From: a virus
Lineage: Duplodnaviria; Caudoviricetes
Virus record (IMG/VR): IMGVR_UViG_3300025015_000022
Span: 20,465-84,464 of that record
Direction: 5' to 3' (one strand)
DNA length: 64,000 nucleotides
Notes under the pieces: generated by a model
The model's database searches: none
The model's input: only the letters and a program-made list of their open reading frames with translations
What the model was told of the DNA's origin: nothing
Program-made: the position numbers and the translations under genes
Part shown: positions 3,734 through 59,050 of the stretch, piece by piece
Layout of the letters: each line of letters begins with the position of its first letter
Position numbering within the stretch: the first letter of the stretch is position 1

Positions 3734-3973
3734 ATGACGGGGTGGCTGTCTCCATCGGGCGTGCTGACGACGTGTGCGCCGAGCGACAAGGTACAGCGGG
3801 CGTGCGAGATTGCGCGACCGGTTGACGTGGCGAACGCCGTTGACCGGATGGAGCGCGCCGGCTGGCTGTGGGTCGAGGGTGTCGTCGATGCGGCGCGCTT
3901 CAACAACGCCACCGACGACCAGCGGTGGGTGCTACGAGCCGAGCGCAAGCGGCTGAGGGGTGGCCAGCGATGA
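3734..3973 (+). CDS. hypothetical protein
   Basis: ORF track; G-rich RBS; stop overlaps next ATG. Confidence 0.5.
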   Translation: MTGWLSPSGVLTTCAPSDKVQRACEIARPVDVANAVDRMERAGWLWVEGVVDAARFNNATDDQRWVLRAERKRLRGGQR

Positions 3974-4236
3974 ACGGTAACAAGAAGGAACGGGCGAAGG
4001 CTGAAGCACTGGCGACCCGCAAGCTGGCGTGCACGTGCGAGTGCGACGGTCCAGAGTGCGATCGCGCGTGGTGGGCTCCTGCTGACACGGTGAACCAGCA
4101 TATCGAGTTCGACTGCGACCGGATGACGCTGCGAGCGGAGCCGGACGGGCGTGTGGTGTGCATCGCGAGGCACGAGGAACGGATCGCAGACGACAGCGAC
4201 GAGGCGCCCGACGCGGACGACCTCGCGGCGCTGTAG
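3970..4236 (+). CDS. hypothetical protein with Cys cluster
   Basis: ATG 3970 overlaps upstream TGA; CTCECDGPEC. Confidence 0.5.
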   Translation: MNGNKKERAKAEALATRKLACTCECDGPECDRAWWAPADTVNQHIEFDCDRMTLRAEPDGRVVCIARHEERIADDSDEAPDADDLAAL

Positions 4237-48933: not shown

Positions 48934-49183
48934 CTCGCTGGTTTCGCGCACTTTCGTGTGCATGGACTACGCTATCAGGCGCGTCCAGATCTCTAGCCCA
49001 CTCGCCAAATAACACCGAATCAATACGCGCACTTACGCTCTCGAAACGGGCGCGATCGTTTGCGAGAACGCACTGGTGGCCATCCATATCTGGAAGGTCT
49101 GCACGTGGGCCAACGTCGCGCGTCGGTGTTCTCGCGAGGCCTGGCGCGCGATGGCTGGCGCAAACAATCGACCGCTCGCAGCT

Positions 49184-49242
49184 AGAAAAGTGTCATCGTC
49201 AGCGTCTTTTTTGTACCCATCGCGGGCCATCGAAGGTACAAC
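49184..49242 (+). promoter_or_regulatory. early promoter cassette, copy 1
   Basis: AGAAAAGT-N14-T-tract-TTGT-N22-TACAAC, same 59-bp spacing as copies 2 and 3; -35 is poor in this copy. Confidence 0.55.
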
Positions 49243-49281
49243 AGCATCGTGGGCAGCGAGAACAACGCGAGGAGCACGACG

Positions 49282-49473
49282 ATGGTGAACGCTGGAGACC
49301 GCATCCGCATGATTGAGATGCCCGACGATCCCGACCCCATCCCGGCCGGCGCCACCGGCACGGTGTTCGCGGTGACCACAGGGCGCTTCGCGCAGATCGA
49401 CGTCGACTGGGACAACGGTCGCACGCTTTCGCTGGTGCCCGGCGTCGATCGCTTCGAAATCATCAACGGCTGA
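49282..49473 (+). CDS. DUF4314-like protein
   Basis: GDRIRMIEMPDDPDPIPAGATGTV...IDVDWDNGRTLSLVPGVDRF. Confidence 0.8.
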   Translation: MVNAGDRIRMIEMPDDPDPIPAGATGTVFAVTTGRFAQIDVDWDNGRTLSLVPGVDRFEIING

Positions 49474-49488
49474 CCAGGAGCAACGACG

Positions 49489-49701
49489 ATGACCACCACG
49501 CGCGACATCAGCAAGGCCAAGAGCATCTACCGGCGCATCCGCCAGAACGTGAACGCGTACTACCAGCACGAGCGGTCGCTCGACGAGTTCGAGATGCGCG
49601 CTCGGATGCTCTGGATCGAAGCCGAGAACGAGGGGCCCTTCGTGTACAGCTACCTCGGATCGCTGGTGAACGACGCGCTGCAGGGCAAGGTGGCGAAATG
49701 A
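49489..49701 (+). CDS. hypothetical protein
   Basis: AGGAG RBS; ORF track. Confidence 0.6.
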   Translation: MTTTRDISKAKSIYRRIRQNVNAYYQHERSLDEFEMRARMLWIEAENEGPFVYSYLGSLVNDALQGKVAK

Positions 49702-49937
49702 AAGCGAAGGCCGACGCGACGATGTACGAGATGCTGGACCTGCTGCGCGAGGCGGCTGCGCAGAACGCTCGCGACGCGACGAGCGCAGCAGAGCGCCACT
49801 ACTGGCGGCTCGCAGCCAGCGAGTTCGCGACCGCGATGAAGCGGAAGACCATCCACATGATCGAGTGCTACATCGAGTTCGCGGACGACTGGATCGGGAT
49901 GGCCACCGACGAACGTGTCGCTGAGTGGGTGGTGTAG
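49698..49937 (+). CDS. hypothetical protein
   Basis: Overlapping start/stop. Confidence 0.6.
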   Translation: MKAKADATMYEMLDLLREAAAQNARDATSAAERHYWRLAASEFATAMKRKTIHMIECYIEFADDWIGMATDERVAEWVV

Positions 49938-49940
49938 ACC

Positions 49941-50186
49941 ATGAAGCTGACCATCGAGCAGAAGCGGGCTCGCCGGCGCGAGCGACTGGAGCAGCAGGCC
50001 TCGCTCGAGCGGGCGTACCAGGAGACGATCGAGATCGTGCGCAAGGGCAAGTGCCCGCAGTGCGGGGGCCCGCTGCGTCGCAACCTGGCGATCAGCGGCT
50101 GGTGGCAGTGCGGGCAGTACGGCGCGGTGGGGTTCCGCCAGGACGCGTCGAAGCCGGCGTGCTCCTGGCAGGGATTCACGAACTGA
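49941..50186 (+). CDS. zinc-ribbon protein
   Basis: CPQCGG...WWQC...C. Confidence 0.65.
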   Translation: MKLTIEQKRARRRERLEQQASLERAYQETIEIVRKGKCPQCGGPLRRNLAISGWWQCGQYGAVGFRQDASKPACSWQGFTN

Positions 50187-50254
50187 GCGATGGCCTGGCG
50201 CTGCCGAGTGGCTGACGCTGGGTGGACGATGACTCTCACGAGGAGGTTCTGACC

Positions 50255-50752
50255 ATGACCACGAAGTTCCAGTCGACCGGGACGTTGCTGAACGACGCGT
50301 GCGCGAAGTACATCGAGCACATCACGCCGACCGCGAAGCCGTCGACCGTCGGCACGGTGAAGCGCACGCTCGACCTGCTGGTCGAGGTGATGGGCGAGGA
50401 GAAGCAGGTCGAGAAGATCCTGGCGGTGCACGTGAACAGCTTCTACGCCAGCGAGCAGGCGACGATGCTGAAGGGCAAGCCACGGGCGGCGGCGAGCGTG
50501 CTCCAGATCCGGCGCATCGTGCGCGCGGCCATCGTCTGGTGGCACGAGAACGGGCTGATCGAGAAGCTGCCGCTGCCGGCCGCAGAGAAGGTCATCCAGG
50601 AGAAGCACGAGAACGCGCAGGCCAAGAAGCAGGAGAAGCTCGAGAAGAAGGCGGCGAAGGCCAGCAGCTCGAGCAGCACCAGCGACGCCACGCCCACAGA
50701 CGCCGGCCAGCCCGAGACCAGCGACTCGACCGACGACCAGCCCGCCGAGTAG
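50255..50752 (+). CDS. stand-alone integrase core-binding (SAM-like) domain protein
   Basis: TLLNDACAKYI...STVGTVKRTLDLL...VHVNSF...SVLQIRRIVRAAIVWWHENGLIEKLP pattern; no catalytic domain. Confidence 0.5.
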   Translation: MTTKFQSTGTLLNDACAKYIEHITPTAKPSTVGTVKRTLDLLVEVMGEEKQVEKILAVHVNSFYASEQATMLKGKPRAAASVLQIRRIVRAAIVWWHENGLIEKLPLPAAEKVIQEKHENAQAKKQEKLEKKAAKASSSSSTSDATPTDAGQPETSDSTDDQPAE

Positions 50753-50782
50753 TGCTACGCTTCCAGTGCGACGGAGGATCCC

Positions 50783-51223
50783 ATGCCAATCTACGAACCG
50801 AATGGTCGTGCTCGCGAGTACGCAGCGCTCGCGCTCAACCACTACCGGGGGTGCTCGCACGGATGCACCTACGGATACTGCAAGCGCAACGGCGAGCGGT
50901 ACGGCAGGTGGACCACCAGCCCGACGCCAGCGCTCACTGTGGAGGACGTGGAGCGCACGTGCCACAAGTACGCAGGCAGCCAGGCGACTGTGCTGCTGTC
51001 GTTCACGACCGACCCCTACAACCACCGCGACGCGGAGATCGGGTTCACGCGTACGGTGCTGGTCACGATGTACAACTCCCGCATCCCCGTCTCGGTGCTC
51101 ACGAAGGGTGGCCGGCGCTGTATGCGTGACCTCGACGTGTTCCAGCGCTTCGGTCGCAGCATCCTCGTGGGCGCGACGCTGACGGGCTGCGACGACCTGA
51201 CGATCGCCGCGTGGGTGCGGTGA
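50783..51223 (+). pseudogene. truncated radical SAM protein (SPL-like family)
   Basis: IYEPNGRAREYAALALNHYRGCSHGCTYGYC, LLSFTTDPY, SVLTKGG, GATLT; third motif Cys appears as Gly; ORF stops at 146 aa. Confidence 0.6.
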
Positions 51224-51226
51224 CGC

Positions 51227-51255
51227 TTGAAAACCATCGCCGCTGAGGGTACTAT
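51227..51255 (+). promoter_or_regulatory. sigma70-type promoter
   Basis: TTGAAA-17 nt-TACTAT. Confidence 0.75.
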
Positions 51256-51257
51256 CT

Positions 51258-51356
51258 GTGGTGACCGCGGTTGGAGCCGGCCAGCTTCCTACCGCGAGGG
51301 ACGTCCTGGGTGCCCGAACACCTGGGAGCCGCGGTCACCACTTTCCTTTCGGGAGG
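51258..51356 (+). ncRNA. cloverleaf leader RNA, copy 1 (C4/CI-like antisense candidate)
   Basis: 13-bp closing stem 51258-70/51329-41; loops CGGCCA (51278-83) and CCCGAA (51313-18); CCTTTCGGGAGG at 51345-56. Confidence 0.65.
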
Positions 51357-51362
51357 AACCTC

Positions 51363-52163
51363 ATGAGCACGAGTGCGCGCGTCAAGCCCAAGCCGAGGTC
51401 CAATTCAGCAGAACTTACAAACTTGGATCTGAACAACCTCACGTTTCGCAAGATTCGAGGCATCGGCTACAAGGCCAAACTGGTCTTGCTGGCGATCATC
51501 AACCACAGAGACCCACACGACAACACGTGCTATCCGTCGCTCCCAAGGCTGGCAGAGGTTTGTGATATGTCAGAACACGGCGTCACCAGGGCGCTAGAAG
51601 TGCTGCTGAAGGAGGGCAGGCAATTCGTGGCGCGTGTACCAGGAACAGGGAGGTGCGGACGCGTCTCGACGTACATGGTGACGGTTGACAGCGAGGGGAA
51701 CCCTGACCCGTCGAAGGTTCCCCAGCGCAAGACGAAGCCACGTGTGAAGACAACGGACGCCACGCCGGTTGACCTGTGGGCGGGCCATGGGATGACCGAG
51801 AAGGAAGCTGAGCGCGTGTTCGACGCATGGGTCAAGACGTTCCGCATGGGGCCTGGGTACACATTCACCGATGAACGGCGCGAAGCGATCAAGGCGAGGG
51901 CGAAGGAAGGTACAACGTGCATGGAGTCACTTGTCGCGCTCCGCGGCTACCGAGTTGCAAAGGACATCTACATTCCGTCGCAGGACAAGACGCGTGGCGA
52001 GATCCCGGCCATGAATGACTTCTGCCTGATCTTTCGCGACGACACCAAAATGCGGCAGTTTTTCCAGGAGGCGAAGGCGGATATGAAGCGTAAGGGACTC
52101 TACCTGAGCGACGACCGAAAAACGGTGGTCGACAAGGACGGTGATCCAATTGGTGTCGCGTAG
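51363..52163 (+). CDS. phage replication initiator (HTH_36-like N-terminus)
   Basis: KAKLVLLAI...CYPSLPRLAEVCDMSEHGVTRALEVL; C-terminal FTDERREAIKARAKEG...DFCLIFRD. Confidence 0.7.
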   Translation: MSTSARVKPKPRSNSAELTNLDLNNLTFRKIRGIGYKAKLVLLAIINHRDPHDNTCYPSLPRLAEVCDMSEHGVTRALEVLLKEGRQFVARVPGTGRCGRVSTYMVTVDSEGNPDPSKVPQRKTKPRVKTTDATPVDLWAGHGMTEKEAERVFDAWVKTFRMGPGYTFTDERREAIKARAKEGTTCMESLVALRGYRVAKDIYIPSQDKTRGEIPAMNDFCLIFRDDTKMRQFFQEAKADMKRKGLYLSDDRKTVVDKDGDPIGVA

Positions 52164-52173
52164 TTACATCATG

Positions 52174-52343
52174 CTAGCCTGCCAACTTGGCGCCCAAGCG
52201 CTAGCCTGCCAACTTGGCGTTTTCATCATGCCAACTTGGCGACGTGCTGGGCGCCAACCTGGCATCCAAGGAAGTCCCCAGGTTGGCGGAATGAACAGAC
52301 CAAGGGGAACAGACCACTGTGAACAGACCAATAGGGAACACCA
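52174..52343. repeat. iteron-like repeats (candidate origin)
   Basis: GCCAACTTGGC x3, GCCAACCTGGC x1, inverted CCAGGTTGGC x1, then GAACAGACCA x3. Confidence 0.6.
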
Positions 52344-52437
52344 GCGGCGGCCCGCTGGCACGTTTCTCGTCGCTCACGCCTCGGATCGCGCGCGCCACGT
52401 TGACGCGCTCGACCTGTGGCTTTCGTAGGAGGTGCGC

Positions 52438-52962
52438 ATGAGGCGGTTCGTGGCAACGATGCTGGGCGGGGTGCTCGGTGGCGTGATCGTGGTTGGCGGG
52501 GTGCTCGCGTGGGTGCTGCTCTCGGGATCGGTGGCGAAGGACGAGACCTCCCCCGCCGTTCCCCAGGTGGCGGCCACCGTGGCCACCGTTCCCCCCGTCG
52601 TCGAGGCGCCCAAGATCGGCGAGGTGCGCGCTACCTCGTTTGTGCTGGTCGACGCCACGGGCAAGACGCGCTGCGAGATCGGGGTGGAACCAGACGGGTC
52701 GTTCCTGGCACTCAATGACGCCATGGGCAACGCGCGGATCTTGCTGGGTGTTAACGGCGACAAGGCCCGCGTGGTCGTGGCTGGTCTCAATTCCAGGGCC
52801 AGCGCAGGGATCGCGGTGTACGAGCAATCGCCGGTCGTGGTGCTGAAGGACGGGAACGGGGCCGTGCGCGCGAACATGGGAATCTTGCCCGACAGCGGCC
52901 CGTGGGTGGCGTTGCAAGACGGGAACGGCAACCAGACGTGGTCGACGGACGGGAGGCGGTGA
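52438..52962 (+). CDS. membrane-anchored protein with short beta repeats
   Basis: N-terminal TM helix; EVRATSFVLVDATGKTR followed by repeated L-x-D-x-x-G-x-x-R units. Confidence 0.7.
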   Translation: MRRFVATMLGGVLGGVIVVGGVLAWVLLSGSVAKDETSPAVPQVAATVATVPPVVEAPKIGEVRATSFVLVDATGKTRCEIGVEPDGSFLALNDAMGNARILLGVNGDKARVVVAGLNSRASAGIAVYEQSPVVVLKDGNGAVRANMGILPDSGPWVALQDGNGNQTWSTDGRR

Positions 52963-53002
52963 TGGCTGGCGTCTACACCCCCGCGGGTCAAGAGGTGATG
53001 CG

Positions 53003-53929
53003 ATGAAGTGTTACAAGTCCGATATCCCGTGGTGTGACTACGGATCGTCGCCGGTCACAGGCTGCTACCACCCGTGCCGCCGGCAGTTCTGCTACGCCGC
53101 TGCGATAGTGAAGCGCTGGCATGGACCCGGCGGTGATGGGATCGATCCACCTGCGTGGGATGGCCTGCACGTTCTCGACGAGCCGTTTCGCTACCAGCAC
53201 GAGCGCGACGCTGACGGACACCCCTCGGCAGACCCATACCCGTTCGGCTTCCACCCGACGTTCCACCGCTACCGTATCGACGTGCCGGCGCCGCGCAAGC
53301 CCGGGAGGGTGTTCGTCGTTCCCATGGGCGATCTGTGGGGTGAGTGGGTGCCGTTGACGTGGCAAGACGAGGTGCTGGCTGCGTGCTCTCGGGACAAGCG
53401 CCACGATTACCTGTTCTGCACGAAGAACCCGCAGGCGTACCGGGGCATCGACTGGAGCGATAAGCCGTGGGCATGGCTGGGTGCGACGGCGACGGGTGTC
53501 GCTGGCGCAGGCGGGTTCCACGGAGCTGCGGCGCACCTGGCTGTTCTTCGCGGCAAGCCGACGACGTTCATCAGCATGGAGCCGTGGATGGGTGGCGATG
53601 ATGGTCTCGACGCGATCGGGGCTGTCGTCGGATCGTGCTCACTGGCGTGGCTCATCATCGGACCGCTCACCGGCACGAAGGCGCGCACGGCGCCGCCCGT
53701 CTCGCGTGACGCGGTGCTGCAACTGCGTGACGCCTGCCAGCGTGCAGGGGTAGCGCTGTTCGTCAAGCCATCGGCAACCTCCTGGGGCCTGACGCCCGAC
53801 GAGATAGCCACGATGCAGGCGTTCCCGCGACCGCATCCGAACGTCGCCACCTACCGCGACGCCGACGCGTTTCAAGCGCTGCCGTTCGAGAGCGCGGTTC
53901 CCGAGCGTGGCCAGGCGTCGCTGCTCTGA
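53003..53929 (+). CDS. phage Gp37/Gp68 (DUF5131-like) radical SAM-related protein
   Basis: SPVTGCYHPC..FCYA, RVFVVPMGDLW, LFCTKNP, WLGAT, FISMEP, WLIIG, LFVK. Confidence 0.85.
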   Translation: MKCYKSDIPWCDYGSSPVTGCYHPCRRQFCYAAAIVKRWHGPGGDGIDPPAWDGLHVLDEPFRYQHERDADGHPSADPYPFGFHPTFHRYRIDVPAPRKPGRVFVVPMGDLWGEWVPLTWQDEVLAACSRDKRHDYLFCTKNPQAYRGIDWSDKPWAWLGATATGVAGAGGFHGAAAHLAVLRGKPTTFISMEPWMGGDDGLDAIGAVVGSCSLAWLIIGPLTGTKARTAPPVSRDAVLQLRDACQRAGVALFVKPSATSWGLTPDEIATMQAFPRPHPNVATYRDADAFQALPFESAVPERGQASLL

Positions 53930-53931
53930 CC

Positions 53932-54159
53932 TCAGCCCGCTTCGATCTCGTCCAGCAGGTCGTCCATCGGTCGTGGCGACCCCACCTGCCCGCCATCTTC
54001 CAGCCGCTGCAACTGCCCGTGGAACGTCTTGCTGATGGCATCGGCGACGCCGGCCACCAGCTCGTAGTCGGCGTCGTAGCACGTGAGCACCCCGCTCATG
54101 GCCAGCGTGACCTCTCGGAACGCAGCGACCAGCACCTTGCGCGTCGTGTTCGTACCCAT
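53932..54159 (-). CDS. 75-aa hypothetical protein, the only convincing minus-strand gene
   Basis: Minus-strand GGAGG before ATG 54159; occupies a gap free of + strand genes. Confidence 0.6.
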   Translation of the reverse strand: MGTNTTRKVLVAAFREVTLAMSGVLTCYDADYELVAGVADAISKTFHGQLQRLEDGGQVGSPRPMDDLLDEIEAG

Positions 54160-54468
54160 GGGAACCTCCGATCCGACCGTTGCTTCGCGGCGTCGCACTC
54201 GCGGTGCCACCATCTGAGTAAGGCGGCCAGGCGCTCGAACGGGGACAGGCTCGATCGCGTGGCCACCTACTACAACAAAGCCGGGCAGTGCCCGATCGGG
54301 GACAAGCAGACGCGATCGCTTCGAGACGGGCCGTGGCGTCAACGCGACGCTGCCAGGAACGCGCTCGCCTCGTCGCCGGGGTTGTTGGCGCGGATCGGGG
54401 GTCACACGCGCGGAAGGGGCATTGGCGCTTGCGTGGCTGGATACGCAAGTAATCGCGTTGCGACCGCG

Positions 54469-54527
54469 AGAAAAGTATCGCGAGCGTGCGTTTTTTTGTT
54501 GCGGTCCAATGGGCGCGATGGTACAAC
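54469..54527 (+). promoter_or_regulatory. early promoter cassette, copy 2
   Basis: TTGCGG-17 nt-TACAAC with TGn extended -10 and upstream A/T tracts. Confidence 0.7.
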
Positions 54528-54560
54528 ACGGTCATGGGATGGACGAACACGGAGATGAAG

Positions 54561-54812
54561 ATGACCAGCACGACGACGACGCGGACGACGACGACGAGCG
54601 GGATCCCCAGCCACCTGGTCGACCTGGTGAAGCGCCACAGCTTCGCCGAGTTCCGCAGCCTGGACCTGGCCCGCAGCTACGCGGCGCGCTGCACGAAGAG
54701 CCACTGGCTGATCCAGGGCGACATCGACGACGACGGCGAGAACGGCCGCTTCTGGGTGGTGCTGCCCGCGGACGCGGCGCGCCTCGAAGCCGCCGGCTAC
54801 GAGATGATCTAG
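54561..54812 (+). CDS. hypothetical early protein
   Basis: GGAG RBS; first gene after promoter copy 2. Confidence 0.6.
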   Translation: MTSTTTTRTTTTSGIPSHLVDLVKRHSFAEFRSLDLARSYAARCTKSHWLIQGDIDDDGENGRFWVVLPADAARLEAAGYEMI

Positions 54813-54841
54813 AGCGCAACCCGAGACGGATGGAGACGACC

Positions 54842-55669
54842 ATGGGCGACACGAGCGACACGAGCAAGATCACCATCGACGTGAGCGGCGACTTCAACCA
54901 GGCCTCGGCGGATCACGAGCGCTCGAACTGGGTCCACCGCATCGTGCTCGACTGCGACGCGCGCACGGTCGACACCTGCACGATGTACGGCAACGGCACA
55001 CCCGGGCGGATCTGGAGCGGAGTCGACCGCGAGATCGGGCGCATCAACGACGGCGTGGCCGACACCGACGACCTGCGCGACTACCTGGAGAGCGACGAGG
55101 CCCAGGCGCTGCTCGAAGCCATCATCGCGGGCTGGGAGTCGTACCACGACGGCTCGAACTTCGTTGGCCGGCTGACAGAGGGTGCGCAGGACGCCGAGAA
55201 CGAACTGGCACGCGAGATCACCGAGATAGAACTGCCCACCTACTGGAACGCGGGCGAGTACCTGGGTGGCGACTGGAACAGCACGATGCAGGGCTGCGAC
55301 GGCACCGACGAGTGGTTCGACGAGCACGCAGACACCGAGGTCGAGAACGCCAAGCCCGACGCGTGGCTCGACCGCAGCGCGGTGCGCGAGGCGATGGTCG
55401 ACCACTGGGAACGGTTCGAGCTTCCCTCGCTCATGGCCGACGGTGTCGAGGTGCACAACGGGCACGAGGTCGGCAACGGCTACGACGCGTCGGCGCGGTT
55501 CGACGGCTCGACGGTCGAGGCCTGCGTGCGCTGCGTGTCGACGCACGAGGGCTGGACCGACTGGGTCGAGGTCAAGGGCGAGGATCCGAAGACGCTGGCC
55601 GACCTGCGGGCCATCGCGATCCGCGCGGCCTCGTGCCCCGGCGACTTCATGCCGCGCGACGAGGAGTAG
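54842..55669 (+). CDS. highly acidic hypothetical protein
   Basis: About 60 D/E versus about 20 K/R in 275 aa (hand count). Confidence 0.7.
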   Translation: MGDTSDTSKITIDVSGDFNQASADHERSNWVHRIVLDCDARTVDTCTMYGNGTPGRIWSGVDREIGRINDGVADTDDLRDYLESDEAQALLEAIIAGWESYHDGSNFVGRLTEGAQDAENELAREITEIELPTYWNAGEYLGGDWNSTMQGCDGTDEWFDEHADTEVENAKPDAWLDRSAVREAMVDHWERFELPSLMADGVEVHNGHEVGNGYDASARFDGSTVEACVRCVSTHEGWTDWVEVKGEDPKTLADLRAIAIRAASCPGDFMPRDEE

Positions 55670-55672
55670 ACG

Positions 55673-55894
55673 ATGACCTCTACGACCCCCACCAAGCCCA
55701 CCACCGAGCACTGCGGCAACTGCGCCAACACGCGCTCCGATACCAGCCACACCGTGTGCACCGCCTCGCGGGACGTTGGGACGATGAACTACCGTCCGCG
55801 GACTGTGCGCTGCGTGTGCAGCTTTGTGGCCGACAGCACGAAGCCGCGCAACTGCCCGGGGTGGGTGGCGGCGTGGAAGGCGGTGGCCCGATGA
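55673..55894 (+). CDS. Cys-rich small protein
   Basis: CGNC...C...CVC...NCPGW. Confidence 0.6.
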   Translation: MTSTTPTKPTTEHCGNCANTRSDTSHTVCTASRDVGTMNYRPRTVRCVCSFVADSTKPRNCPGWVAAWKAVAR

Positions 55895-56325
55895 CCACGT
55901 TCGACCGCTCGACGCTCGCGACCTCGCGCTACGATGCGATCTCGCTGCCACCGCTGTTCACGTGGTCGACGCCGATGGACCGCCACGTCATCCCATGGCG
56001 CGTGGCCTGGCCGTCGAGGCTGCATGCGCTCATTGTGGGTGCGCGCCTCGACGCGGGGAGCACGGTGGACGACCGGTACGCGGATCTGCACGTCGACTAC
56101 CACCGCGACGTGAACGGCCGGCGCACGCTGGAAGTGTGGCTGCGCGACAACCGCGACCACGAGGCACACTGGCGACGACTGTGCGCGCTGGCGGGGTGGC
56201 TGTGCCGCGAGGGCTTGATGGCGCGCTACGGCGGGCTGCCGACCGCTGACGCCAACTTCACCGGCTGCGAGTACCTGCTGGTGAGCGACGACCTGAGCAT
56301 CGACCACGAACCGACGAAGGGGTAG
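55891..56325 (+). CDS. hypothetical protein
   Basis: ATG overlaps upstream TGA. Confidence 0.55.
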   Translation: MTTFDRSTLATSRYDAISLPPLFTWSTPMDRHVIPWRVAWPSRLHALIVGARLDAGSTVDDRYADLHVDYHRDVNGRRTLEVWLRDNRDHEAHWRRLCALAGWLCREGLMARYGGLPTADANFTGCEYLLVSDDLSIDHEPTKG

Positions 56326-56328
56326 ACC

Positions 56329-56598
56329 ATGGACCGCAAGCGACTGGCCGACGCGATAGAGGCGACGCGGGTGCTCTGCGACGCCATGGGCACTCGTGAC
56401 GCCGCGGGGACGTGGACGAAGAACCCCGCGGTGACGCACGAAGCGCACTCAGTGGCGCACCTGCACGCGAACATCCTGCACTCGCTGTGGATGGGGCACC
56501 CGGGCACCGTCGAGGTGCTGCGCGACTGCCTGGCCATCGCGGAGGCGCCGGAGAGCGTCGAGGCCACCGAGAGCGAACCGACGAAGGCGAAGGGGTAG
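56329..56598 (+). CDS. hypothetical protein
   Basis: ORF track, RBS. Confidence 0.55.
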   Translation: MDRKRLADAIEATRVLCDAMGTRDAAGTWTKNPAVTHEAHSVAHLHANILHSLWMGHPGTVEVLRDCLAIAEAPESVEATESEPTKAKG

Positions 56599-56601
56599 AT
56601 C

Positions 56602-56844
56602 ATGCTGCACCCGAAGAGCCGCTTCACGAGCCCCAGCGACGTAACCACCTCGACCAACCCCGTGGCCACCGCGTTGCAGATCTTGCGGGCCATGCGCCGC
56701 AACGTGACCGCGCGAGCGTACGGGCGCATCGACGCGCGCACCTTCGCACAGCGGGTCGACCGCCTGTGGCGCGAGGCAGAGATCGCAGGCGACGAGGTGT
56801 ACGCGATCGTCAACGAGCGCTTTGACGGCAGCGCGGCTGCGTAG
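56602..56844 (+). CDS. hypothetical protein
   Basis: ORF track, RBS. Confidence 0.55.
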   Translation: MLHPKSRFTSPSDVTTSTNPVATALQILRAMRRNVTARAYGRIDARTFAQRVDRLWREAEIAGDEVYAIVNERFDGSAAA

Positions 56845-56867
56845 GTGATCACGTGGCCACGATGGAG

Positions 56868-56896
56868 TTGCGCGTTGACCGACAGCGCGCTATCGT
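56868..56896 (+). promoter_or_regulatory. sigma70-type promoter
   Basis: TTGCGC-17 nt-TATCGT. Confidence 0.55.
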
Positions 56897-57013
56897 AGGG
56901 ACGAAGGGCGCGGTACGTGGTTCGCCGGCCAGCGACCACGGAAACCGCCTCGCGGGATCGGAAGGGTGCCCGAACACCCCGATGACGCGCCCCGTCCCTA
57001 ACCTTTCGGGAGG
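56897..57013 (+). ncRNA. cloverleaf leader RNA, copy 2
   Basis: Closing stem AGGGACG-AA-GGGCGCG/CGCGCCC-CGTCCCT; loops CGGCCA (56926-31) and CCCGAA (56969-74); CCTTTCGGGAGG at 57002-13. Confidence 0.65.
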
Positions 57014-57020
57014 TACCACC

Positions 57021-57509
57021 ATGCCATGCGAACGATGCGGGTCTCTTTCAAGCCTGGAGCTTCACCACATTCGCCCAATGGCGTTCGGTGGCAACGACGA
57101 GTCGAACGCTGCGAAGGTGTACCTCTGCCGCAGATGCCATCACCACGTCCACAGCAAGCGCAACACCGAGTGGGAGCACCTCGCGTGGTCTGTGGAGAGA
57201 ACGGACAATTTCAATCACGGGGTGGTGCACAACCAGCGCGGAAACGTAGCGAACCTCTATGGGTGCTGCCCTGCGTGTGGGTGCAGCATCGATGGCGAGG
57301 CATACGAGCGTGTGCTCGACGGAGAAGAGAGCGCGTACCCTCACTGCAATTGCGGGTCGCATGGGTACGCAGATCCTCGCGGGGTCGAGATCGTGCACGT
57401 CGATATCGAGATTGTACGTGATGGCGTCGACGTGAATGCACTGCGTGAACGGATCTTGGAAGCCGTTGGAAACGCTGGCTTGGTACGCTTCTGTCAGATG
57501 ACGAGGTGA
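57021..57509 (+). CDS. HNH endonuclease
   Basis: CERCG..LELHHIRPMAFGGND...LCRRCHHHVH; lower-GC codon usage. Confidence 0.85.
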   Translation: MPCERCGSLSSLELHHIRPMAFGGNDESNAAKVYLCRRCHHHVHSKRNTEWEHLAWSVERTDNFNHGVVHNQRGNVANLYGCCPACGCSIDGEAYERVLDGEESAYPHCNCGSHGYADPRGVEIVHVDIEIVRDGVDVNALRERILEAVGNAGLVRFCQMTR

Positions 57510-57513
57510 AACG

Positions 57514-57948
57514 ATGAACCGCCACCGCTTCACCGCCACCGCCGACGTGCTGGCGTTCGTGCTCGCTGGCAATGCGATCCTCACCATCGAGAGCGGGCAC
57601 ACCGGCCAGCGGTTCACGTACCGCGTGCGCCAGCCCAAGACGCCGGGGCCCCACTTCGTGCAGCTCCTCATGGGTCCCGATAACACCAGCAGCTACACGT
57701 TCCTCGGGACCATCTTCGAGGGGCGTGAGTGGCGGCACTCGTCGAAGTCGCCCATCACGCGGACCGCCACGAGCGCGGTGGCGTGGGCATGGCTGTGGGA
57801 GTTGCTGGCGCGTGGGCACGAGCTGCCCGAGGCGCTGGGGGTGTACCACGAGGGGCGGTGTGGTAGGTGCGGTCGGGTGCTGAGTGTGCCCGCTTCGATC
57901 ACGCTTGGGATCGGTCCCGAGTGTGCAACCAAGCGCTTCGGCGCGTGA
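57514..57948 (+). CDS. DUF6011-like protein
   Basis: C-terminal CGRCGRVLSVPASITLGIGPECA. Confidence 0.7.
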   Translation: MNRHRFTATADVLAFVLAGNAILTIESGHTGQRFTYRVRQPKTPGPHFVQLLMGPDNTSSYTFLGTIFEGREWRHSSKSPITRTATSAVAWAWLWELLARGHELPEALGVYHEGRCGRCGRVLSVPASITLGIGPECATKRFGA

Positions 57949-57963
57949 AGGAGGGTTCGGACC

Positions 57964-58662
57964 ATGGCGAAGCTGGAATACGAGGGTGGCGAAGGTGGCA
58001 AGGCGTTCGATGACAGCGTGTGGAGCGGGCTGTTCGACGATGTGATGGCGAAGATGACCGAGGCCACGAAGCTGATGCGCGACGGGCTGGAAGTGGTCGC
58101 GATCGCGGTGGTCGAGCACCACGCGCCGCGTTGCACGTTCCCCGACGCGATCAAACGCTTCGATCTGGTGGTGCAGGCAGCCAGCGCGATGAAGCCCGGC
58201 GCGCTCGCCGATGGCAAGTTCACCCCGACGATGCCCGTCGAGGTGCTGCGCTACGAGGGGCAGCCAGTGGCCAAGTTAGAGAACTGGCAGATCCACGTGG
58301 TCACCCCGTACTTCGCCACGATGCCGGCGATCAGCATGTTCGTTGAGTGGGCGGACCCGCGCGACCCGATCCGCGTGGTGACGGTGGACTGCCGAGACTT
58401 CGGCCAGGCCATCGCGGACGCCAACAAGCTGGGGACGGTGATCGTGCTGGGCGAGCACGACCGCGGCGCTCGCGACGACAAGCCGCACGGCAGCTTCCGC
58501 GGGACGCCTGAGCAGATCGCGCTCGCTGCGATGGTGCTCCAGCGCGTGGGGCCCAACCTGTTCGAGTGCCAGAAGGATCGCCGCGACGACCGCACGTGGC
58601 ACGGGCGCACGATCCGCGTGGTGCCCGACGCGGCGCGTTTCGAGATGGACCCGCGCGACTGA
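57964..58662 (+). CDS. hypothetical protein
   Basis: GGAGGG RBS; ORF track. Confidence 0.65.
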   Translation: MAKLEYEGGEGGKAFDDSVWSGLFDDVMAKMTEATKLMRDGLEVVAIAVVEHHAPRCTFPDAIKRFDLVVQAASAMKPGALADGKFTPTMPVEVLRYEGQPVAKLENWQIHVVTPYFATMPAISMFVEWADPRDPIRVVTVDCRDFGQAIADANKLGTVIVLGEHDRGARDDKPHGSFRGTPEQIALAAMVLQRVGPNLFECQKDRRDDRTWHGRTIRVVPDAARFEMDPRD

Positions 58663-58679
58663 CCACACCGACCGACGCA

Positions 58680-58738
58680 AACAAAGTGCACGCGACCGCG
58701 CTTTTATTGTTGCCACCATACCAGCCCCATGATACAAC
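58680..58738 (+). promoter_or_regulatory. early promoter cassette, copy 3
   Basis: TTGCCA-17 nt-TACAAC with TGn extended -10 and upstream A/T tracts. Confidence 0.7.
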
Positions 58739-58801
58739 TAAGCCATGGATGGAACGGCAACGGCAGGGCGCCGGGGCCGAAGGATGAGGAAGGGGGACAA
58801 G

Positions 58802-59050
58802 ATGAACCACAGCGGCAACGACGGATACACCCTGGAGACCCTGGTCGGCGGGCAGGCGCGCGAGGAGTTCCTCGCCAATAGCACCGAGGGCACCTACGAG
58901 GAAATGGTCGACGCCTACCTGCTGACGCCGTGGCTGGTCGAGGCGATGGCCGACTGCGGCAACCCCGACAGCGAGACCTACGACCCGGACTTCTCGCCCG
59001 ACAACGCTCGGCGCGTGCTGCTCACGTGGCTGCGTGGACCGCAGGCGTAG
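58802..59050 (+). CDS. small acidic protein
   Basis: 15 D/E versus 4 R in 82 aa. Confidence 0.65.
   Translation: MNHSGNDGYTLETLVGGQAREEFLANSTEGTYEEMVDAYLLTPWLVEAMADCGNPDSETYDPDFSPDNARRVLLTWLRGPQA

Follow-up and report, generated by a model that had tools for sequence, protein, structure and literature searches.

A cloverleaf leader RNA with a loop complementary to the ribosome-binding site, found ahead of a replication-initiator gene and of a mobile HNH gene in an uncultured phage

Control of replication initiators by short RNA–RNA contacts is classic in plasmids and in phages P1 and P4, and to our knowledge it has hardly been charted among uncultured phages. The C4 RNA of P1/P7 and the CI RNA of P4 are structured RNAs with a closing stem that lie upstream of their own target; a loop pairs at the downstream ribosome-binding site (RBS), and loop and target differ together between phages. 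Kissing hairpins with fully complementary loops of 6-7 nucleotides (nt) are known between molecules, as in ColE1 RNA I/RNA II and TAR/TAR*, and T4 I-TevI and similar free-standing homing endonucleases carry their own promoter together with an RNA structure hiding the ribosome site. The c4 RNA acts in trans to repress Ant (PMC8546580). In the IncI-alpha/IncB/IncL-M repZ/repA systems, a leader hairpin loop pairs beside the initiator RBS and sets translation (PMC8053102). Two leaders of related design, L1 and L2, are described here from a 64,000-nt stretch of uncultured phage DNA (hereafter the window, bases 20465-84464 of an 84,464-bp IMG/VR virus record that is rated complete). L1 lies ahead of a replication-initiator-like gene and L2 ahead of an HNH endonuclease gene. 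Judged from sequence comparison, the leader is a real RNA control element that has not been catalogued, and by analogy its functionally nearest relatives appear to be C4 of P1/P7 and CI of P4, with the IncI/IncB repZ pseudoknot also close.

An earlier note on this DNA had reported that both leaders fold as a closing stem with internal hairpins, that the closing stems are unrelated and both pair, that the loops CGGCCA and CCCGAA are identical in the two, and that a downstream TTCGGG is the exact complement of CCCGAA and overlaps the GGAGG. Coordinates, sequences and folds were as described, and the loop identity and the complementarity were confirmed. The anatomy was resolved into a closing stem (P1), three internal helices (P2 to P4) and a hairpin holding the Shine–Dalgarno sequence (SD), as follows; L052 and G001 denote copies from two related phages that are introduced below.

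51258..51341, + strand: L1 cloverleaf (fold, pair check, covariation with L052, G001 and L2)
51258-51270 with 51329-51341, + strand: L1 P1, 13/13 pairs
51273-51288, + strand: L1 P2, loop CGGCCA at 51278-51283
51292-51299, + strand: L1 P3, GCGA loop
51304-51327, + strand: L1 P4, loop CCCGAA at 51313-51318
51343..51358, + strand: L1 SD hairpin, UUCCU/AGGAA stem, loop UUCGGG at 51348-51353, SD GGAGG at 51352-51356
56897..56999, + strand: L2 cloverleaf (fold, pair check, found by a model built without L2)
56897-56912 with 56986-56999, + strand: L2 P1, 7+7 pairs
56916-56940, + strand: L2 P2, loop CGGCCA at 56926-56931
56945-56955, + strand: L2 P3
56957-56983, + strand: L2 P4, loop CCCGAA at 56969-56974
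57001..57014, + strand: L2 SD hairpin, ACCU/AGGU stem, loop UUCGGG at 57005-57010, SD GGAGG at 57009-57013

Minimum-free-energy folds of L1 and L2 gave a closed multi-helix junction and, after it, the SD hairpin (z-scores -2.8 to -3.6), and every helix of both leaders was fully paired in the pair check, the unrelated closing stems included. With the covariation given below, these values bear out the claim that the leaders are structured RNAs rather than chance folds. The stems of L1 and L2 are unrelated in sequence; exactly shared are the blocks GCCGGCCAGC at the P2 tip, GGGTGCCCGAACACC at the P4 tip and CCTTTCGGGAGG in the SD hairpin. Within the 84,464-bp genome, GGGTGCCCGAACACC (a 15-mer) and CCTTTCGGGAGG were confined to the two leaders, and TTCGGGAGG likewise occurred at just these two sites.

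Further copies were obtained from two phage lineages. G001, a 70.8-kb relative, was found through its portal protein (96% identical), and its right arm aligns to the window piecewise; its leader is an L1 homologue with 77% identity and a nearly identical promoter upstream, lacks P3, has a different P2 loop (CUGAUCC), and keeps P1, P4 and the kissing pair described below. The gene behind it encodes a much shorter HTH_36 protein (138 amino acids, aa), 37% identical across 70 residues. L052 is a single metagenome contig recovered with an alignment of initiator homologues, and its initiator is 57% identical. Between lineages the leader is far more strongly conserved, at 77-88% identity, than the initiator proteins encoded behind it, at 37-57%. 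A covariance model (R1) built from L1 and L052 alone recovered both the G001 copy (E = 1e-9) and L2 (32.5 bits, E = 5e-5), L2 being far more diverged from L1 than L052 is; no further match to R1 was obtained in the three phage records.

The SD hairpin was predicted in 4/4 leader copies, and three versions of the P4 loop and its target were read from them, each a perfect complement at the same location:

window, L1 and L2: P4 loop CCCGAA, SD-hairpin loop UUCGGG
L052: P4 loop CCGACA, SD-hairpin loop UGUCGG
G001: P4 loop CCCUACA, SD-hairpin loop UGUAGGG

Among the three copies with 6-nt loops, three of the six kissing pairs had changes on both sides and 100% of cells paired. Duplex energies were -7.8 to -9.7 kcal/mol for cognate and -2.1 to -5.5 kcal/mol for non-cognate combinations, and the three naturally occurring codes, each six or seven letters long, cross-react poorly. 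In the nested helices, 14/32 pairs carried double changes and 97.6% of cells paired, in an alignment that had been fitted to the model; this covariation was reached by 0/500 shuffles, and slid controls paired at 40-50%. RNAalifold run on an unfitted MAFFT alignment recovered P1, P2, P4 and the SD hairpin and counted 10 compensated pairs. Covariation in homologues, on which the earlier note had staked its proposal beforehand, was found both between the two loops and within P1, P2 and P4. The complementarity of loop and RBS has survived by compensatory change in two further phage lineages, which supports the note's view that it is functional. On these comparisons, the pairing of P4 loop and SD loop exists as a selected feature. 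The element thereby supplies a compact leader with covariation support, and it is a candidate for a new Rfam family.

The same evidence bears on the possibility that the conserved words are a DNA-level element, such as half-sites for a binding protein, or a neutral relic of duplication. GCCGGC is indeed a DNA palindrome and CCCGAA/TTCGGG an inverted repeat; the compensatory changes, however, preserve four RNA helices and the loop–target pair, the L2 helices are perfectly paired despite unrelated stem sequences, and the iterons near the initiator gene have no likeness to the loops. We regard this explanation as highly improbable.

It is probable, though we hold this with modest confidence, that the promoter-proximal 5' leader locks the ribosome site by loop–loop pairing and so throttles translation of the gene downstream. 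The junction formed by P1 to P4 is closed and three- or four-way; directly 3' of it, a small hairpin holds the SD in its stem (UCCU with AGGA) and presents a loop of 6-7 nt fully complementary to the P4 loop. By itself the SD hairpin is weak, about -5 to -6 kcal/mol; the kissing pairing, most simply intramolecular, would add about -8 to -10 kcal/mol. Docking of P4 would pair the three leading Gs of GGGAGGA while the stem holds AGGA, so that the whole ribosome site would be double-locked, and translation would be kept low for two genes whose products are best scarce. A UCCU/AGGA-type SD stem is kept in all copies. In contrast to ColE1 and TAR, a single leader here carries both hairpins, the SD lying in one of the two. 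The letters of loop and target would make up a lineage-specific code, changing along with initiator and iterons. We infer that the pairing represses rather than activates and that it acts in cis, within one molecule.

Several points weigh against such a lock. Only four copies from three lineages were found, all of them metagenomic; a permanent cis lock leaves unexplained why L1 and L2 have the same code on unrelated stems, and equally the invariance of the P2 loop CGGCCA across three copies and of the P3 core between L1 and L052; and the comparable pairing of a loop to the RBS neighbourhood in IncI/IncB activates, so that an effect of the opposite sign is conceivable here too.

The conserved P2 and P3 elements would be accounted for if the leader were a sensor of the riboswitch or protein-operator kind, in which the junction with its invariant P2 loop and P3 binds a ligand or a phage or host protein and sets the docking of P4. 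The P2 loop with its closing pairs (GCCGGCCAGC) is identical in L1, L2 and L052 though the P2 stems change, the P3 core CCGCGAGG is identical in L1 and L052 (the P3 of L2 differs), and no consistent complement of the P2 loops CGGCCA or CUGAUCC was found within 400 nt, which leaves this loop without an RNA target in its vicinity; such constancy of a loop on changing stems is typical where a binding partner is shared. In G001, by contrast, P3 is missing and the P2 loop is CUGAUCC, with P1, P4 and the kissing pair still present. No known riboswitch model matches and no candidate RNA-binding protein was identified, and a sensor is considered distinctly unlikely.

Transcription was addressed through promoter-like sites, which were scanned on both strands of the four loci:

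51227..51255, + strand: L1 promoter, TTGAAA-N17-TACTAT, the sole sigma-70-type match in 49000-59000
56868..56896, + strand: L2 promoter-like site, TTGCGC-N17-TATCGT, a weak consensus match missed by a stricter scan

The L2 site is the only TTGNNN-N16-18-TANNNT on either strand of 56800-57300. Exactly one site of this form was present per locus in 4/4 loci, in each case on the + strand, with a 17-nt spacer and an end 0-3 nt before P1; a TTGNNN-N17-TACTAT stands at the same place in G001 and L052 (TTGCCT-N17-TACTAT in L052). The spacer sequence of L052 differs, which argues for a real promoter. The position of a sigma-70-like site before the leader is thus conserved in all four copies, as expected from the earlier note, which had placed a promoter before each leader. 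Its further statement that the leaders begin 1-3 nt after the promoter held for L1 and failed for L2, whose -10 box directly adjoins P1 (0 nt apart). Standard promoter geometry would place the start site a few nt into the 5' arm of P1, so the 5' end of the RNA would be base-paired. No terminator was found 3' of the leader and no conserved open reading frame (ORF) through it, which points to control of translation and not to attenuation; an attenuator or a put/nut-like antiterminator was accordingly rejected, the covarying partner being the SD hairpin.

The minus strand of all four loci contained no sigma-70-like site, a scan that other promoter types would escape, and a plasmid-style countertranscript is therefore not evident. 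This bears on an activating pseudoknot as in IncI-alpha/IncB repZ, in which the P4 loop would pair just 5' of the SD, so that the SD hairpin would give way and AGGA would be left free; some competitor not seen here, be it an antisense RNA or a protein, would prevent that pairing. The general layout is the same as in IncI1/IncB, a loop being complementary to sequence next to the initiator RBS (PMC8053102), with a specificity that is short and replicon-specific; the gene controlled is again a replication initiator, and the AGGA part of the SD lies outside the paired hexamer. In the plasmids, however, the pairing activates, is opposed by a countertranscript and is coupled to a leader peptide, whereas in the present loci neither an antisense promoter nor a leader ORF was seen and the anatomy favours a lock. 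There is no conserved leader peptide (in L052 the in-frame ORF begins at 2808, only 15 nt ahead of the ATG), the leading Gs of GGGAGG are taken up by the pairing, and the UCCU/AGGA stem kept in all copies fits a lock better than a release. An activating role of this kind is held to be improbable.

The earlier note had further drawn a parallel with the C4 and P4 CI RNAs, and membership of that family was not upheld by the searches. A cmscan of 50800-57400 against Rfam 15 at E <= 10 gave as its sole match a chance one to an unrelated long non-coding RNA; a direct search of the genome with the C4 model (RF01695) gave one 13-bit match elsewhere and none at the leaders; and the int-alpA model (RF02996), run over the whole genome, stayed without a match at E <= 10. 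The int-alpA RNA resembles the leaders in being a junction RNA ahead of replication or integration genes of phages and mobile elements, and differs from them in sequence and from their P1 to P4 plus SD-hairpin architecture. At Rfam 15 gathering scores the window yielded two tRNAs only, with no riboswitch or cis-regulatory family at the leaders. A tRNA or tRNA-like gene was likewise rejected, since ARAGORN found just two tRNA-Ala genes, and HEARO/omega RNA, a group I intron and a known riboswitch were dropped without an Rfam match.

In its logic the leader nevertheless remains like C4, having a loop complementary to the RBS site of a co-transcribed gene and covarying with it between relatives in three versions. 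This leads to the alternative of an antisense RNA that acts in trans in the manner of C4 and P4 CI. RNase P, for instance, would excise the cloverleaf, which would build up as a small RNA; the P4 loop would bind the SD-hairpin loops of both mRNAs, giving dose-dependent feedback on the synthesis of initiator and HNH protein and replicon-specific exclusion of related phages with the same code. It would fit an RNA with a closing stem whose own target follows it on one transcript, a code that differs among relatives with poor cross-reaction and changes with initiator and iterons like an incompatibility determinant, and the sharing of one code by L1 and L2 despite unrelated stems, as expected if one RNA pool serves both. 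Yet C4 has two antisense loops (a', b') with two targets, and here the P4 loop alone has one; the target here, an SD-hairpin loop, is situated about 30 nt past the RNA on the same molecule, so that pairing in cis should win kinetically; the genes controlled are a replication initiator and an HNH nuclease and not an antirepressor; and the leaders match neither the C4 model (RF01695) nor related ones. The agreement between L1 and L2, once positions conserved family-wide are set aside, amounts to about four lineage-specific nt in a single genome. Action in trans is accordingly judged rather unlikely.

The setting of L2 comprises the following features:

56866..57516, + strand: inserted cassette of promoter, L2 and HNH gene, about 650 bp, ACGATG repeats at the flanks, missing from G001
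57021..57509, + strand: HNH endonuclease gene, 162 aa, matching Pfam HNH and several PHROG HNH families

The cassette is located exactly at the start codon of a DUF6011 gene, about 10 nt of the gene start being replaced; in G001 the DUF6011 gene comes immediately after the stop of the gene upstream, without the stretch 56866-57516, so that the insertion is evident from the comparison. Cassette G+C is 0.58-0.61 and the G+C at third codon positions (GC3) of the HNH gene is 0.70, both below the values of the genome. From its absence in G001 and its low G+C and GC3, L2 is taken, on these sequence features, to belong to a self-contained mobile HNH cassette. The HNH protein had no close homologue besides itself in the protein collection. 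The assignments of the genes behind the leaders in the earlier note, a replication initiator at 51363 and an HNH nuclease at 57021, agreed with the HTH_36/PHROG and the Pfam/PHROG matches, respectively.

The L2 cassette uses the loop and target letters of the resident initiator leader on unrelated stems, and the identical loops hint at shared control, in trans or by a common factor. Under the lock favoured here, a mobile HNH cassette with a diverged leader and the resident code would bring both genes under shared control. As with T4 I-TevI, a selfish HNH gene would bring a promoter and an RBS-hiding RNA structure; the difference is that the structure here is a multi-helix leader homologous to the phage's own initiator leader and has the same loop code. 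A mobile nuclease cassette with the leader code of its carrier's replication gene is of interest for the question of how expression of homing endonucleases is held at a tolerable level. It is conceivable, if doubtful, that the P4 and SD loops form a programmable RNA 'address' defining the replicon, that the cloverleaf in trans limits the initiator by copy number and excludes relatives of the same address, and that the HNH cassette copied the resident one. Were this true, a phage replication-control RNA would time and limit the nuclease, a homing element plugged into the RNA circuit of its carrier.

Two further observations were made at the insertion site. The ATG at 56862, where the DUF6011 gene used to start, shares its frame with the HNH gene, and L2 contains no stop in that frame, so that ribosomes starting there would translate through L2 into HNH; a 9-nt insertion shifted the old DUF6011 SD to about 16 nt upstream of this ATG, so the start is probably disabled. 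The DUF6011 protein (57514-57948, just past the cassette) has its best matches, at 33-52% identity, in phages of Brevundimonas, Caulobacter, Sinorhizobium, Rhizobium and Agrobacterium, which is a weak hint at an alphaproteobacterial host. Inference of the host through the portal protein was dropped because the nearest portal among cultured phages is merely 28% identical.

The locus behind L1 was annotated in the same manner:

51363..52163, + strand: replication-initiator-like gene, 266 aa, HTH_36, matching PHROG replication-initiation families
52164..52358, + strand: iteron field 3' of the initiator gene, GCCAAC(T/C)TGGC units and three GAACAGACCA units, read directly

The GC3 of the initiator gene is 0.73, compared with 0.85-0.95 in neighbouring genes, and a protein search gave initiator homologues at 57-61% identity. 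The iteron field at 52164-52358 is the probable origin. Iterons vary by lineage: GCCAAC(T/C)TGGC in the window (52164-52358) corresponds to a GCCAGATAGGC-type in L052 (3630-3800), GAACAGACCA-type units are common to both, and G001 (L045 2470-2600) has another set again. Between window 51186-51256 and L045 1880-1951 (G001), the last 13 codons of the upstream gene and the promoter are almost identical; the remainder of that gene, radical-SAM-like in the window, is unrelated. Leader interior, initiator and iterons are then strongly diverged, and homology is back near window 52370, a pattern that from the alignment looks like a mosaic joint at the edge of a swappable replication module. In L052, near-identical 9-bp hairpins (GGGCCGGCC...GGCUGGCCC) lie at 2598-2625 and 3962-3988, on either side of the module of leader, initiator and iterons.

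Searches for further copies and relatives were made at the level of motif, nucleotide and protein. The exact 15-mer GGGTGCCCGAACACC gave 33 matches in IMG/VR, all chance judging by context, and the three-block pattern gave 0; a P2-P3 pattern matched 2 times in IMG/VR and 5 times in the genome collection, and model R1 recognised no leader among these matches. A search with the promoter word matched only G001 and one identical 20-kb contig. No match was obtained for the initiator and HNH proteins against IMG/VR or for the initiator alignment against the genome collection, and no relative emerged among phage records (megablast with the region, distant blastn with the leader, tblastn with the initiator) or among plasmid records (tblastn with the initiator, distant blastn with the leader).

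The phage genome is 67% G+C and practically every gene is on the + strand. Its left arm holds genes for replication and recombination (PD-(D/E)XK nuclease, AAA_24, RecD2-like helicase, Toprim-DnaB primase-helicase and ThyX). A probable exception in strand is a small minus-strand gene in 53932-54421, with an ATG at 54160 preceded by GGAGG, about 76 aa and no Pfam match; the divergent gap of about 260 nt after it holds a hairpin and a minus-strand TTTGTTGTA motif. At 49184-49245 and 58683-58735, a T-run hairpin is followed at equal spacing by TTGT...N20...TACAAC ahead of gene blocks, and these two sites may be a terminator-promoter cassette with another promoter type.

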